From UHGV virus genome UHGV-1493261: a stretch of DNA of 64,000 nt. The stretch is one strand, 5' to 3'. Source of the stretch: a virus. Numbering within the stretch: the first letter of the stretch is position 1; each line of letters begins with the position of its first letter. The notes under the pieces are model-generated. The model worked only from the letters and a program-made list of their open reading frames with translations. It ran no database searches and had not been told where the DNA came from. The translations under genes were made by a program, and so were the position numbers. Positions 16,545 through 32,718 of this stretch are shown in pieces.

Positions 16545-16594
16545 AGTCTCAGCCCTTAAATAGATAGAGTGTTATGGCTATTTAGGACTAGATT

Positions 16595-24674: not shown

Positions 24675-25124
24675 TTACCCACGATAACCTCCCACTTCAT
24701 ATGGATCGACAATGTAGTCCACAATCCAAGTTTCAAGTTTTACCGCCAGAGGAGATTTGTCTTCTTCATCCAGGGTGTAATATCTTTTGCCAGTACCCTT
24801 CAGTGGGTCGTACACAACAAGTTTTTCATGACGAGTGTCTAAGATGATCTGGTGCAATAACCCTGGCGTTGCTGGACTTGGCACGCAAAGCAGATAAACA
24901 TAATCATGATAGATGGTGGCAGTTTGGTTGATCCCTTTCCCTTGCAAGAACGGAACCCCTTCCATACAAAGAACGTCACCAATCGTGGTTTCCCAATTCG
25001 CGAAACTTTCATGCCATATTTCAGCAACCTCGGCGACCGGACGCTCAAGTAACATCGCCAGGCACGTTGACATACACGTGTCTTTTGTTGGCTGCATCTG
25101 ATGAGTTAGTGGATATTCCATCAT
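24675..25124 (-). CDS. Hypothetical protein
   Basis: 149-aa ORF between the two topoisomerase subunit genes. Confidence 0.5.
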   Translation of the reverse strand: MMEYPLTHQMQPTKDTCMSTCLAMLLERPVAEVAEIWHESFANWETTIGDVLCMEGVPFLQGKGINQTATIYHDYVYLLCVPSPATPGLLHQIILDTRHEKLVVYDPLKGTGKRYYTLDEEDKSPLAVKLETWIVDYIVDPYEVGGYRG

Positions 25125-28436: not shown

Positions 28437-28937
28437 CTAGCCCAGAAACACTACTAAAGTCAAATTAGTGAGGGCGCTGCGACCTTCCCGCAGCATTTCA
28501 TGCGCAGATGCAAGGCGCTTGGGGTCATGCAACGTATCAGAGAACACGATGATGTTTGCTTTATCGATGTCCGTGCCCATGTAATGGGATATGGTTGTCG
28601 TGTGCTGTTTCTTGTCTACATCGGGCAATGATACATCCGCACCTGCTCGGGAGCGGAAGAAAGAATCGCGTTCACTAACGCTATGGAAGACACCCATGAT
28701 GTTGAGGTTGTTCTCTGTCTGGAAATCATAGGACAGAATCTTCTTCAGCGCGGCGGTGTGCCCAGTCTGGCGCAGCATGCGATAGTACAGTATGTTTCCA
28801 GGACAGGTGGGGTCCGTCACACCTCCCCTCGATTGGCGATCTTTCTGGATTTCATACGCATCCAGGATAAGTTGTTGGACCATTTCAATATGGGCAGTCA
28901 GGGAGATTTCGACTTTACGTTTGACCATGGATTTCAT
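28437..28937 (-). CDS. Hypothetical protein
   Basis: 166-aa ORF. Confidence 0.5.
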   Translation of the reverse strand: MKSMVKRKVEISLTAHIEMVQQLILDAYEIQKDRQSRGGVTDPTCPGNILYYRMLRQTGHTAALKKILSYDFQTENNLNIMGVFHSVSERDSFFRSRAGADVSLPDVDKKQHTTTISHYMGTDIDKANIIVFSDTLHDPKRLASAHEMLREGRSALTNLTLVVFLG

Positions 28938-29004
28938 TTGGTGTATCCTCAGTTAGGTTCCGCTCATGGGGAACGAGTCCATTATACACCGAATACCGGA
29001 AATG

Positions 29005-29029
29005 AAAAAGAGGCCGGAGCCTCTTTTGT
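29005..29029 (-). terminator. Intrinsic terminator (bidirectional shape)
   Basis: AAAAAGAGGC-CGGA-GCCTCTTTTG; A-run and T-run flank the hairpin. Confidence 0.55.
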
Positions 29030-29055: not shown

Positions 29056-29313
29056 TCATTCCTCTTCGTATTTTCCTGTCCTGAAGTTCCACTTTCGCGC
29101 ATTCTTCAGGTCCAGGTCTTTGAAGATGTTTCCAAAGATCTTTTGGAAGGAGGTCTGCTCTTGTTCTTCCTCAAGATCCTTGGGCTTCTTGACAGGCTCT
29201 TTCACCATACCGCCTTCGGGTTTCCCCACATCGGCGGTCGTGGTTCCAGGGGCTGCCGAGTCTTCAAGGAAGTCCTGGAAGCATTTCATGATTAGACCGC
29301 AGCCATTTCGCAA
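29056..29313 (-). CDS. Hypothetical acidic/basic small protein
   Basis: 85-aa ORF; start may be the internal MKCFQDF. Confidence 0.4.
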   Translation of the reverse strand: MRNGCGLIMKCFQDFLEDSAAPGTTTADVGKPEGGMVKEPVKKPKDLEEEQEQTSFQKIFGNIFKDLDLKNARKWNFRTGKYEEE

Positions 29314-30113
29314 CGAGTAGAGGTCACAGAGTGGCCGTCAGCGTCTTCAACAACACACCAGTACTCACCCTCGTTTTCGGCAGCAACTGCAGTGATAACC
29401 AGGCTCGCAGTTGCAGCAGTGGGGTTAGTGCCAGCATCGATCACCTCACCTTCACCACCAGGGACATCAGAGAAGTACCAAGTATGTGTGTATGGGGTAG
29501 TGCCGCCTGTAGCAGCGATGGTGAAGGTTGCGGATTCACCTGTTGTTACATCCTGAGAAGCAGCCAGATCGGTAGACAGAGACAGAGCGCCAGCCACTGT
29601 GATGACGGTAGAGTCAGTGTGGTCACCTTCAATGGTTACACCGTATACAGTCACTGAACCCGGCGCCAGCAGCTTGAATTTACCACCACCGATGTGCACA
29701 GCTTTGGTCAGATCGCCAGAGTACCAGTTGACACCCTGGTAGGTCGCGTTCTCCGGAGCGACGGCCGCCTTCAGTTCAACAACCTGACCGACTTCACCAT
29801 TAGCAGTTTCAGGGGTGATGGTCAGGCCAGTGGTCAGCACAGCGCTTGGGTCGTGGATTTCATAAGACAGCTGGAAGCCAACGGGCTTGGTTGGATCCAC
29901 TTTGGTGACGCCATCGGCCTGCAAATTGCTCTTAGTCAGCAGTGCATCCAGACCTTTACACTCAGTCAGGATCTCGTCTGGGTCTTGGTTAAGACTGGTC
30001 TTTTCCCAACCACGAGCAGTACCTGTTACAGTGTGAAGACGCTCAGTTTCCGGTTTGTTGCGAACAACTTCCGGTGCTACTAATACAGTGATCGTTGGCA
30101 TGGTTTCCTCCAC
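29292..30113 (-). CDS. Ig-like domain protein (Hoc-like / Big_2-type)
   Basis: 273 aa, Thr/Val/Gly-rich beta-strand pattern; C-terminal Ig signature TFTIAATGG...YTHTWYF...GEYWCVVEDADGHSVTS (Y-x-C). Confidence 0.5.
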   Translation of the reverse strand: MEETMPTITVLVAPEVVRNKPETERLHTVTGTARGWEKTSLNQDPDEILTECKGLDALLTKSNLQADGVTKVDPTKPVGFQLSYEIHDPSAVLTTGLTITPETANGEVGQVVELKAAVAPENATYQGVNWYSGDLTKAVHIGGGKFKLLAPGSVTVYGVTIEGDHTDSTVITVAGALSLSTDLAASQDVTTGESATFTIAATGGTTPYTHTWYFSDVPGGEGEVIDAGTNPTAATASLVITAVAAENEGEYWCVVEDADGHSVTSTRCEMAAV

Positions 30114-30472
30114 TCATCCAAATCGTTGTTCAGAGCCATCATCAGCTCATTATCTGGTTCGTATGAACCGGAACATAAATCATCGCGCCATACGCCTAAT
30201 GTCAACAAAGCAGCCTTGAGGCGTGGCAACTGGGGCTTATCCACCTTCAAAACGAGCATACGGCAAGCGGCCTCTGTTTCGAACGTATTGAAGACAGTAA
30301 TCAATTGATTGAGAATCAACCGAGGACTCTTACCAGGGACAAATCTCTTCAATGATTGATTAATTAGCGAAATCCGCTGAATGTCTACCAACAGTTCATC
30401 CCACGAGACAGAATCTACAATATAATGCCTCAGTGCATAATCCATCAAGTTGCTTTCGTCAACGATAGGCAT
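30080..30472 (-). CDS. Hypothetical protein
   Basis: 130-aa ORF. Confidence 0.5.
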   Translation of the reverse strand: MPIVDESNLMDYALRHYIVDSVSWDELLVDIQRISLINQSLKRFVPGKSPRLILNQLITVFNTFETEAACRMLVLKVDKPQLPRLKAALLTLGVWRDDLCSGSYEPDNELMMALNNDLDEWRKPCQRSLY

Positions 30473-30502: not shown

Positions 30503-30928
30503 TTATTTAATCTGCAATTTTTCGATCAGCTTCGCAATCAGCTGAATGCGATCTTCTTCTGTGATACCCAGCGGCGCAGCCAACAACTTGAGATCGTCAA
30601 CCCCCAACAGGTTCAGAGTCTCGGCTGTGATGTTGGTTTCAATCACAGCCCCGGTTTCAAACGGCTTACCGAACTTGTCGCGACCATAACGCTTGAGGGT
30701 CGCAGCCAGCCCTGGAAGCTCCTGGAGGAGTTCCTTCGTGCCGTCTTGGTATTCGCACACCCAACCGTACCCGCCAGCGTAGACGACGCCTCCGTCTCCC
30801 CCTGGAGGGATGTTATCGATGGCGCGTTGTAGGTAAGTGGGCAACACACCTTCCTCCTTCGCCTGGATGTCATCGACTGGGGCTTCGGTTTTGATTTCAA
30901 CTTTCTTGACTTCAGGTTTCTTCGCCAT
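30503..30928 (-). CDS. Hypothetical protein
   Basis: 141 aa; AGGAGA RBS. Confidence 0.5.
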   Translation of the reverse strand: MAKKPEVKKVEIKTEAPVDDIQAKEEGVLPTYLQRAIDNIPPGGDGGVVYAGGYGWVCEYQDGTKELLQELPGLAATLKRYGRDKFGKPFETGAVIETNITAETLNLLGVDDLKLLAAPLGITEEDRIQLIAKLIEKLQIK

Positions 30929-31152
30929 GTTTGGTTCTCCTATAGACTGTTACGTATTTACCACAGCAATTGCAACAGTATACGTGCATCGCGTATCCTT
31001 CGCCTGTGAAGTCGCAACCACCACAGCGACAGAACAATTTCACGAACTGTTGGTCATGAACTTCACGGGGAGGAAAGTTCTTGTGGGAGTATTCCCTGGT
31101 CTCGCCTTCGAACTGAAAGGAGGCCGGAGCCTCCTTGGTGGATGGGGTTTGG

Positions 31153-32718
31153 TTACTTGTACAGACCTGTCACGTCAATAGACTTGTGCTGGCGATTGTA
31201 CTCAGCAGTGTAGTCATCCAACACCAGGTATTCACAGCAGCGGATTTTGCTTGAACCAAAATCATCGGTGACCGACACGATGTCACGCGGGTTCAGCTTA
31301 CAGCGAACGACACGCTGTCCCACAGAACCGAAACACTCCTTCAGGTAGGCCAGGGAGCAAACGTGCAAACCGTATGAACACAGGTCAGAGTTGTTGTCGT
31401 TCACGAATGAGCGAGCCATCCGCACGATAGTGCCTGGGGCGTTGCTGATCGTGTTGCTGTGCTTGTCCATGTAGTTGCCGCGCACCGATTTGTAGAGGAT
31501 GATGTCACCATCGTCGTCAATTTCGATGTCAGAGTACGCCATGAACTCATAGATGCGCCCGGACTGAACCAGAGAAGCTGACGGGTTCTGGAACATTTTG
31601 TCCATAAACTTCGCCATGCGGTCCAGATTGTGGAAGTCACCCTTCAGCATCAGCGCCAGTACACGCTTGGCGATGGATGTGCCTGTGATGTCATGACCGG
31701 ACCAGCGGACACGGTTGTCAGACACGTCTACCAGACCAGCAGCGTACTTCGCGATGGCTTCACGAGGTCGCATCAGCGAGTAGGCCAGCTTCACGTCTTT
31801 GTCTTTGATCGCCTGTACGATGCGGTCGTAGGCCGGGTGTGAAGTGGTGATCGTTTCCGGCTTACCGTCAATCGCGATAACAACGCTGTCAGGCAGAATC
31901 AGGATCTGGTGTTCGTTCAGGAACACGTCCAGGTCTTTCGCACCGAAGTCCTGCTTGGTCTTCTTGTCATCAGCCACTTCTTCAACGTCTTTGACAGCGA
32001 CGGTGAATTCTACAGAAGACAGAGCCAGACGCAGGGTGCGACCGAGGATGCCATCAAAGTAACCAACACGGCGACGGGCATCCAAGGATCCACGGATAGG
32101 ATAGGTTTCCCCGTCAACCACAACGCTGATTTCAACGTTACTCGGAACTTTGTCCGCACCTTCTGACAGTGCCACAGAAATTTCTGCCATCTCGCCGATA
32201 GCTTCAACATCGAAAGCGCGACTATCACCTTCCACAGGAGTCAATTCAGACTTTTCAAAGAAAGCCCCTTTGAAATTGCCGTCGTTAGTGAGACACAGAT
32301 ACTTGTTGTGGTTCGGCAGATATGCCCCAACATACCATTCTGTGCCATCTTTGTCTTTGGCCGTGCCGCCCGGTTGGACCTCGAATACTTCCTGCTCTTC
32401 CGGCTTGATAGGAGAGATCACAGTTACCTTGTTTTTCTCCTCGGTAATCCGGACCAACAGGGCACGGGCGATCGTCTTGGCTGACACACCGTACACCTTG
32501 GCCAAGAATGCATTGCTGACATTACCTGCCGCCGAATCCCTTTGGATATTGGCGATCTGATCTGTTGTCAGGGATTTCAGCGAAGTAGGGTCAACACCGA
32601 GTTCCGTGTCGGAAACACGTTGTACAGTCGAGCGGGGTATGCCCAACAGAGTAGCAATTGCGCTCTGGCTTTTGCCTTCCTTCAAATACTTCAGGATCTT
32701 TTCGTCAATCTTGTTCAT
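31153..32718 (-). CDS. rIIB: RIIB protein
   Basis: C-terminal half collinear with T4 rIIB (DDDGDIILYKSVRGNYMDKHSNTISNAPGTIVRMARSFVNDNNSDLCSYGLHVCSLAY vs TEDGYFYAWKVVRSNYFDCHSNTFDNSPGKVVKMPRTRVNDDDTQTCSRGLHVCSKSY). Start set at internal MNKIDEK, which carries an N-terminal HTH as in T4. Confidence 0.85.
   Translation of the reverse strand: MNKIDEKILKYLKEGKSQSAIATLLGIPRSTVQRVSDTELGVDPTSLKSLTTDQIANIQRDSAAGNVSNAFLAKVYGVSAKTIARALLVRITEEKNKVTVISPIKPEEQEVFEVQPGGTAKDKDGTEWYVGAYLPNHNKYLCLTNDGNFKGAFFEKSELTPVEGDSRAFDVEAIGEMAEISVALSEGADKVPSNVEISVVVDGETYPIRGSLDARRRVGYFDGILGRTLRLALSSVEFTVAVKDVEEVADDKKTKQDFGAKDLDVFLNEHQILILPDSVVIAIDGKPETITTSHPAYDRIVQAIKDKDVKLAYSLMRPREAIAKYAAGLVDVSDNRVRWSGHDITGTSIAKRVLALMLKGDFHNLDRMAKFMDKMFQNPSASLVQSGRIYEFMAYSDIEIDDDGDIILYKSVRGNYMDKHSNTISNAPGTIVRMARSFVNDNNSDLCSYGLHVCSLAYLKECFGSVGQRVVRCKLNPRDIVSVTDDFGSSKIRCCEYLVLDDYTAEYNRQHKSIDVTGLYK

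Follow-up and report, generated by a model that had tools for sequence, protein, structure and literature searches.

One locus of the virus genome UHGV-1493261 raises the question of why a protein with immunoglobulin (Ig)-like domains, of the kind found in capsid decorations, should be encoded among early genes. We analyzed the locus within a 64,000-nucleotide (nt) stretch of that genome, hereafter called the window. An original prediction, made from the letters of the sequence, had described the Ig protein as Thr/Gly/Val-rich with a terminal Y-x-C Ig signature, had placed its gene in the minus-strand early block, and had proposed either a Hoc-like virion decoration expressed from its own promoter or a secreted adhesin. 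Our results indicate that the gene very probably encodes a conserved accessory virion-surface protein of Ackermannviridae (Vi1-like) phages, a member of the family PHROG 215. This family is already known, and the location of the gene is not anomalous for it.

The DNA between positions 25000 and 36000 of the window showed 97.7% identity to Escherichia phage AV101 (Ackermannviridae, Aglimvirinae; Agtrevirus-like) and 86-95% identity to other Ag3-like and Limestone-like phages, and on this identity the window phage is assigned to the Ackermannviridae (Aglimvirinae). The protein matched PHROG 215, ‘structural protein with Ig domain’, with an E value of 9.6e-75 over residues 2-273 of the 273-residue open reading frame (ORF) in which it is encoded. 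By tblastn, 317 phage records contained a homologue. In 270 of these the match was full length, covering 80% or more of the query, and identity was 83-99%; the value was 99.3% in the nearest relatives and approximately 83-90% in Kuttervirus, Limestonevirus and Taipeivirus. Sequenced phages with an orthologue in this range of identity number approximately 280. Members of the family are LIMEstone1 ORF006, GP94 of phage selz, the ‘putative tail fibre’ of ViI, Ag3 orf00006 and, probably, Sajous1 gp83. These orthologues share with the window protein the length of 269 residues, the three-part layout, the position between rIIB and the histone-like and topoisomerase II genes, the flanking small genes and the terminator, and no difference of substance from them was found. 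In the window, the gene lies in a long co-oriented block together with genes for DNA polymerase, rIIA, rIIB, the histone-like protein, topoisomerase II, DexA and dCMP deaminase. The main capsid and tail module is located elsewhere. Both points agree with the original prediction.

The six-frame ORF list gave a minus-strand ORF of 273 residues at 29292..30113 with a GTG start. Within it, the ATG at 30101 has GGAGG 5 nt upstream, the GTG at 30113 falls inside that ribosome-binding site, and all annotated relatives, including AV101, LIMEstone1 and selz, use a coding sequence of 810 nt (269 residues). Because of the placement of GGAGG and ATG and the frame used by all relatives, we took the shorter coding sequence. 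The true start is almost certainly the ATG, and the start at 30113 that had been proposed lies 12 nt too far upstream. The composition of the protein (Thr 14.5%, Val 10.8%, Ala 10.8% and Gly 9.7%; sum, 45.7%) and a Y-W-C motif formed by Y247, W248 and C249 agree with the description in the original prediction. No signal peptide was seen; residues 1-25 carry a net charge of 0, and the sole hydrophobic stretch is TITVLVAP.

The protein consists of three parts, namely a conserved N-terminal segment, a Big_2 domain and a C-terminal I-set/Ig_3 domain. Pfam recognized Big_2 over residues 95-162 (8.5e-6) and, over residues 187-263 (187-265 with the ig model included), Ig_3 (1.5e-9), I-set (3.1e-7), V-set (1.6e-6) and ig, with values from 1.5e-9 to 5e-6; all of these matches were above the curated cut-offs, and the Ig domains greatly exceed what chance would give. 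An AlphaFold2 model, built on the 20-sequence family alignment described below, showed two beta-sandwiches over residues 85-269 with a predicted local distance difference test score (pLDDT) of 83-95. The pLDDT was less than 50 for residues 6-81, and the chain ended 5 residues past the last strand of the Ig domain. By both Pfam and the model, the N-terminal 85 residues are not Ig-like. A Foldseek search of the PDB with the full model returned generic tandem-Ig matches only (Big_2-CBM56, titin, NCAM and a single-chain variable fragment), a result that confirms the modelled fold and tells nothing further. The Ig and Big_2 folds that had been proposed are thus borne out, both by Pfam and by structure prediction. 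A sequence search of the PDB for a solved structure of the family gave matches to the Ig domains only; for the Big_2 domain these were a Paenibacillus Big_2-CBM56 structure (7quz, 3.9e-10) and lambda gpV.

Evidence that the family is associated with virions comes from several orthologues. LIMEstone1 ORF006, which is 88.6% identical to the window protein, carries the annotation ‘confirmed structural protein’, and mass spectrometry (MS) of LIMEstone1 virions detected it with 4 peptides and 21.9% coverage. In the window protein, residues 144-263 (listed under positions 29295-29732) lack Lys and Arg and thus form one tryptic peptide of 120 residues, which spans the end of the Big_2 domain and nearly the whole Ig domain; therefore, proteomics with trypsin misses the display domain, and coverage understates abundance. 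Tryptic peptides of 7-35 residues hold just 93 of the 269 residues (35%), and the LIMEstone1 coverage would correspond to approximately 60% of the detectable residues if digestion there resembles that of the window protein. We considered deriving a copy number from MS coverage or spectral counts and dropped this, since only 35% of the protein is detectable and the counts of the portal, tube and sheath do not reflect how many copies of each are present.

Results from Salmonella phage selz (SenALZ1, MH709121, Kuttervirus) address the intact particle. The protein called ‘GP94’ in that study, with domains at 92-171 and 172-269, carried an N-terminal Avi-tag that was detected by western blot on caesium chloride (CsCl)-purified phage, and N-terminal fusions of cell-penetrating peptides left plaques and burst size unchanged (PMC10654057). 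The reverse complement of primer 94_cpp_P2 encodes MPTITVLVAPEG, which agrees with the family N-terminus through residue 11, and identifies GP94 as the GenBank coding sequence SeLz1_93, 83% identical to the window protein. The names in MH709121 (32396-33430) do not correspond to those of the study, as SeLz1_94 is the downstream ORF of 73 residues, and picking the selz display scaffold by accession alone would lead to the wrong gene. CsCl-purified virions of the Kuttervirus Sajous1 yielded 43 spectra for gp83, which is labelled ‘putative tail fiber protein’; the tail tube yielded 52 and the sheath 89. Sajous1 gp83 is probably the orthologue, matched only by gene order, because the rII genes are gp87 and gp88 and the order is conserved. 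The S117 tailocin paper contained no MS or sodium dodecyl sulfate-polyacrylamide gel electrophoresis, the PP35 paper contained no virion proteomics, and a 2024 review of the phage family did not mention the Ig protein. Altogether, the LIMEstone1 MS and the selz western blot establish virion association for the family.

An alignment of 20 cluster representatives showed that residues 1-85 are nearly invariant; mean pairwise identity was 0.88 in this segment, 0.63 in Big_2 and 0.71 in the Ig domain. A second lineage, with proteins of approximately 339 residues, keeps the segment at 0.78 identity and the first Big_2 at 0.37, and has two additional Big_2 domains in place of the I-set domain. When the segment alone was used in tblastn, 283 records matched, nearly all of them genomes of Ackermannviridae size. 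An exhaustive phmmer search of 1.84 billion representatives with the 89-residue N-terminus found nine genuine clusters only, at 50% identity. In all nine the segment is N-terminal, and what comes after it is either a run of one to three Big_2 domains or a Big_2 together with an Ig domain. Three further matches were rejected as artefacts of repeat summation: P0061, a SpaA-repeat adhesin aligned in 8 partial stretches, and the repetitive P0065 and P0066. An anchor with exchangeable display domains would be expected to show just such a constant N-terminus combined with Ig modules that vary in kind and number, and we infer such a role for the N-terminal segment.

The protein may be attached to the capsid, as Hoc and pb10 are, or to the tail; one paper names Hoc on the grounds of similarity, and one names the tail on the grounds of a single labelling. 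Attachment to the head, in the manner of T5 pb10 or T4 Hoc, would have the N-terminus bind the gp23-like lattice, for example at hexamer centres, with the Ig domains directed outward, and we hold this placement tentatively, at somewhat less than an even chance. It is favored by the best solved relatives of the I-set domain, which are head decorations: the top match in the PDB was N4 gp17 (9e99_J; query residues 177-267 against gp17 residues 89-180, 1.4e-10), followed by T5 pb10 (5lxk, 8zvi; 1.2e-6 to 1.4e-6). The PHROG families labelled ‘Hoc-like head decoration’ scored 1.7e-16 and 2.3e-10. In addition, phages of this family have a major capsid protein like gp23 of T4 (a PDB search with the kuttervirus protein returned T4 gp23-type entries only and no Ackermannviridae capsid structure), a small N-terminal attachment part followed by a solvent-exposed C-terminal Ig domain is the layout of pb10, and the spectra of Sajous1 gp83 were numerous despite the few detectable peptides. 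However, the similarity to head decorations is found only in the promiscuous Ig domain and not in the anchor, and equally good Big_2 matches occur in major tail proteins (phrog_41, 158 and 341; lambda gpV). The match to pb10 is limited to its Ig domain (8zvi residues 70-154) and does not reach the low-pLDDT anchor, and pb10, unlike the window protein, has one Ig domain and a folded capsid-binding domain. Hoc of T4 and RB49, which binds as a single copy at each hexamer centre of the major capsid protein, has tandem Ig-like domains, as does the window protein with its two beta-sandwiches, but the Hoc-like PHROG matches cover residues 172-270 only. The window protein is not a Hoc orthologue, because the capsid-binding domain of Hoc is C-terminal, whereas here nothing follows the Ig domain and the conserved non-Ig part is N-terminal. 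N4 gp17, as is the case for the window gene, is encoded outside the late structural block. It has no counterpart of the 85-residue non-Ig anchor, and the window protein has only two Ig domains. The entry 9e99, ‘32 kDa protein’, is gp17, in which three Ig-like domains lie flat on the capsid around the quasi-2-fold axes, with DI anchoring the protein and seated on the quasi-3-fold axes (PMC11768535); because of this arrangement the window protein is not gp17-like.

The sole direct localization points elsewhere. A gold-binding peptide on selz GP94 led to gold particles that were reported on the tail and not on the head (PMC10654057), in keeping with a decoration that has its own gene and sits in the region of the sheath, neck or baseplate. 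The observation consists of a single negative-stain panel with no legible quantification, and indirect binding readily occurs with gold-binding peptides. The widespread ‘tail fiber’ annotations come from Ig-domain similarity and not from experiment. When tails carry Ig domains, these normally form part of a tube or fibre protein, as in lambda gpV, T5 pb6 and SPP1 gp17.1*, and do not have a gene of their own; in gpV and pb6 a C-terminal Big_2 is joined to a tail-tube fold, and the window protein has no tube domain. A tail decoration of this kind is a possible placement to which we give a little less than half of our confidence. The Hoc-like character that had been suggested is not supported: the likeness to Hoc, pb10 and gp17 stops at the Ig domain, the anchor is N-terminal and unrelated to that of Hoc, and the gold was on the tail of an orthologue with 83% identity.

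The labels ‘tail fiber’, ‘tail fiber protein’ and ‘putative tail fibre’ in many records would make the protein a receptor-binding protein that sets host range. We consider this very unlikely, as orthologues with 83-99% identity are shared by phages that infect six different genera (Escherichia, Salmonella, Shigella, Dickeya, Enterobacter and Klebsiella) and do not track the host; the host range of the phage family is attributed, in the parts of the literature consulted, to the branched tailspike complex; the 269 residues, with their two Ig domains, include no fibre-like coiled-coil or beta-helix region; and bulky N-terminal fusions left plaque morphology and burst size of selz unchanged. Still less credible, and close to negligible in our estimate, is a protein outside the virion, either a secreted adhesin or an intracellular early protein that contaminates virion preparations. 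Its gene does sit among early and middle genes, and rIIB, ligase and PhoH, which are non-structural, were also present at low level in the LIMEstone1 virion MS. Yet the protein has no signal peptide, purified virions from at least two laboratories were independently positive with coverage or spectral counts like those of true structural proteins, and the tagged protein was accessible on CsCl-purified selz particles. The proposal of a secreted adhesin is thus unsupported.

The Ig gene is the third gene of a four-gene cassette (Table 1), and the order rIIA-rIIB-DUF7440-DUF7207-Ig-small ORF-histone-like-topoisomerase II is common to the window, LIMEstone1, AV101 and selz. None of the four cassette proteins is represented by a model in NCBIfam. 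The 3' end of the DUF7207 gene, which holds the Ig Shine-Dalgarno sequence, overlaps the Ig start by 22 nt (30080-30101), and the ATG of the 77-residue protein lies 2 nt past the Ig stop; this overlap and tight spacing suggest translational coupling along the cassette. A TAAATA hexamer precedes the DUF7440 gene and is invariant in AV101, LIMEstone1 and selz. The LIMEstone1 annotation gives it as a putative late-promoter -10 element 26 nt before that gene, and the late promoters annotated in the LIMEstone1 structural region share (C)TAAATA as their core, placed 25-50 nt before the start codons. Among the 21 TAAATA sites of the window, 10 lie 10-70 nt upstream of an ORF with a Shine-Dalgarno sequence and ATG, compared with 8.6% expected (P = 3e-6). 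The exact T4 late promoter, TATAAATA, occurred once in the window, far from the gene, and was not enriched, and the relaxed TAAATA core was used instead. A sigma-70 scan found nothing convincing upstream of the cassette, and a literature search for Ackermannviridae transcriptome data found none. From the sequence, a late promoter for the cassette is plausible. A second TAAATA, at 30504..30509, is possibly an internal late promoter, a weaker candidate than the first and without a Shine-Dalgarno sequence by the criterion used. Elsewhere in the window, and as one example of the sites that precede genes, TAAATA cores at 16557 (plus strand) and 16584 (minus strand) stand back to back, 27 nt apart and 32-34 nt upstream of divergent genes, which by correspondence with AV101 would encode a gp4-like head-completion protein and a gp48-like baseplate protein. 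This looks like a putative bidirectional late-promoter region, and similar places are so annotated in LIMEstone1.

The cassette is bounded by two hairpins. The downstream terminator has a folding energy of -16.3 kcal/mol (z -2.3) and is conserved in AV101, LIMEstone1 and the Kuttervirus selz, while the GC-rich hairpin after rIIB has the same energy with a z of -1.43 and is not clearly better than shuffled sequences. Relative to LIMEstone1 and selz, the window phage and AV101 share a 101-bp deletion (window 30925-31160, minus strand), which is particular to their lineage and whose ends fall in the direct repeat CTCCTTTC. It removes the start codon and approximately 30 codons of the Cys-rich ORF003 (phrog_3805), leaving a remnant ORF of 43 residues (30912..31043), and it replaces the T-run of the rIIB terminator (UUUCUUUU becomes UUUCAGUU). 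Directly past the cassette terminator stands a sigma-70-like promoter, TTTTCA-16-TATAAT (window 28956-29008, minus strand), followed in the leader of the histone-like gene (28437..28937) by a small hairpin, GTTCCCCATGAGCGGAAC. AV101, LIMEstone1 and selz all retain the promoter and the hairpin, the latter of which may have a regulatory role.

Table 1. Features of the Ig-protein locus in the window, with positions given on the whole stretch
Feature	Position	Strand	Remarks
Ig-domain virion protein, coding sequence	29292..30101	-	269 aa + stop; ORF list, ribosome-binding site, relatives' 810-nt coding sequence, PHROG 215
Shine-Dalgarno GGAGG of Ig gene	30107..30111	-	Within 3' end of upstream gene; read from sequence
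N-terminal segment, residues 1-85	29847..30101	-	Most conserved part; inferred virion-attachment anchor
Big_2 (bacterial Ig-like group 2) domain, residues 86-172	29586..29846	-	Pfam, PDB 7quz, pLDDT 83-93
I-set/Ig_3 domain, residues 173-269, with Y247-W248-C249	29295..29585	-	Distal swappable module; Pfam, PDB
DUF7440 protein, 141 aa, cassette gene 1	30503..30928	-	C-terminal helices SAP-like; N-terminal half marginally like Ig anchor
DUF7207 protein, 130 aa, cassette gene 2	30080..30472	-	Pfam PF23837, 2.4e-26
77-aa protein, cassette gene 4	29056..29289	-	phrog_4805, 5.6e-47
TAAATA, late-promoter-like -10 core	30955..30960	-	26 nt upstream of DUF7440 start codon
Second TAAATA	30504..30509	-	Overlaps DUF7440 stop codon; 31 nt upstream of DUF7207 start
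Hairpin AAGGAGGC-UCCG-GCCUCCUU after rIIB	31111..31136	-	Upstream cassette boundary; annotated terminator in LIMEstone1
Intrinsic terminator AAAAGAGGC-UCCG-GCCUCUUUU, then UCAUUU	29000..29027	-	Downstream cassette boundary

Taken as an accessory protein of the virion surface, and in line with the Ig-display accessory proteins of tailed phages, the Ig protein would work as follows. Its N-terminal 85 residues, which are not predicted to fold confidently alone, would fasten it to a conserved virion component, and the Big_2 and then the I-set Ig domain would project from this anchor into the solvent. By analogy with other phage Ig domains, we infer that the displayed domains adhere weakly to carbohydrates on bacterial surfaces or in mucus, so that display would raise the rate of host encounter and would not determine host range. 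The distal module would be exchangeable, with one I-set Ig in some lineages and two further Big_2 domains in others. Since the cassette has a TAAATA core before it and a conserved terminator after it, late expression may be possible amid replication genes. The original prediction of a virion Ig protein with its own promoter is thus essentially right, given the orthologues in virions; the most plausible source of expression is a late-type promoter of the small cassette to which the gene belongs, and not joint expression with the replication genes nearby.

Several points weigh against this reading. The virion evidence comes from orthologues and not from the window phage, and it is from conservation that the N-terminus is taken as an anchor. 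The N-terminal tags and fusions in selz, which neither blocked incorporation into virions nor altered burst size, are slightly awkward if the extreme N-terminus is buried at an interface. The low pLDDT of the anchor may merely reflect a shallow alignment of 20 near-identical sequences. As for timing, the core before the cassette reads gTAAATA, and CTAAATA is commoner in LIMEstone1 structural genes; moreover, the T-run of the rIIB terminator is lost here, so that transcripts of the rII genes may read through into the cassette.

The origin of the anchor was also considered. Residues 15-65 of the Ig protein matched Pfam DUF7440 (PF24224) with 21.0 bits (E 4e-4; profile positions 3-52 of 110), below the Pfam gathering threshold of 25 bits, and matched phrog_3795 likewise below threshold; the protein encoded two genes upstream belongs to these families. 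Three divergent relatives matched DUF7440 at the same coordinates with 24.4, 20.9 and 18.5 bits. A profile-profile comparison (hhalign) of the anchor with DUF7440 aligned 70 columns with an E value of 0.024 and a probability of 2%, and BLASTP between the anchor and the neighbouring DUF7440 protein gave no significant match. We therefore dropped the filing of the Ig protein under DUF7440, the BLASTP result being not significant and the profile comparison marginal. The anchor is possibly a distant, partial tandem paralogue of the DUF7440 protein, as these profile matches would have it. A combined reading, in which a separate Ig-display protein of the contractile tail has an anchor that is perhaps a diverged copy of the DUF7440/SAP-like N-terminal module, appears unlikely to us. 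If it were true, tandem duplication of part of a protein outside the virion, which probably binds nucleic acid, would have supplied the attachment module. Phage Ig display would then have a novel means of attachment, different from what Hoc, pb10 and gp17 use. Among the entries read in the LIMEstone1 and Sajous1 proteome tables, neither the DUF7440 nor the DUF7207 protein occurs.

Finally, the results bear on how the family is named and used. GenBank labels for the same protein of 269 residues include tail fiber, tail protein, tail tube protein, hoc, Ig-like virion protein, unknown structural protein and hypothetical protein. Those that specify a location rest on no localization data, and the public annotations disagree with one another and for the most part lack a basis; the label that can be defended is ‘structural protein with Ig domain’. 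The discovery value of the locus is small, as annotations of the family already exist in hundreds of genomes, proteomics has detected it in virions, and in a Kuttervirus it has served as a scaffold for peptide display. Whether the protein sits on the head or the tail matters for display or phage engineering with it, and its invariant N-terminal anchor and exchangeable Ig modules suggest that fusions would be better placed at the C-terminal, distal end, whereas the published fusions were N-terminal.

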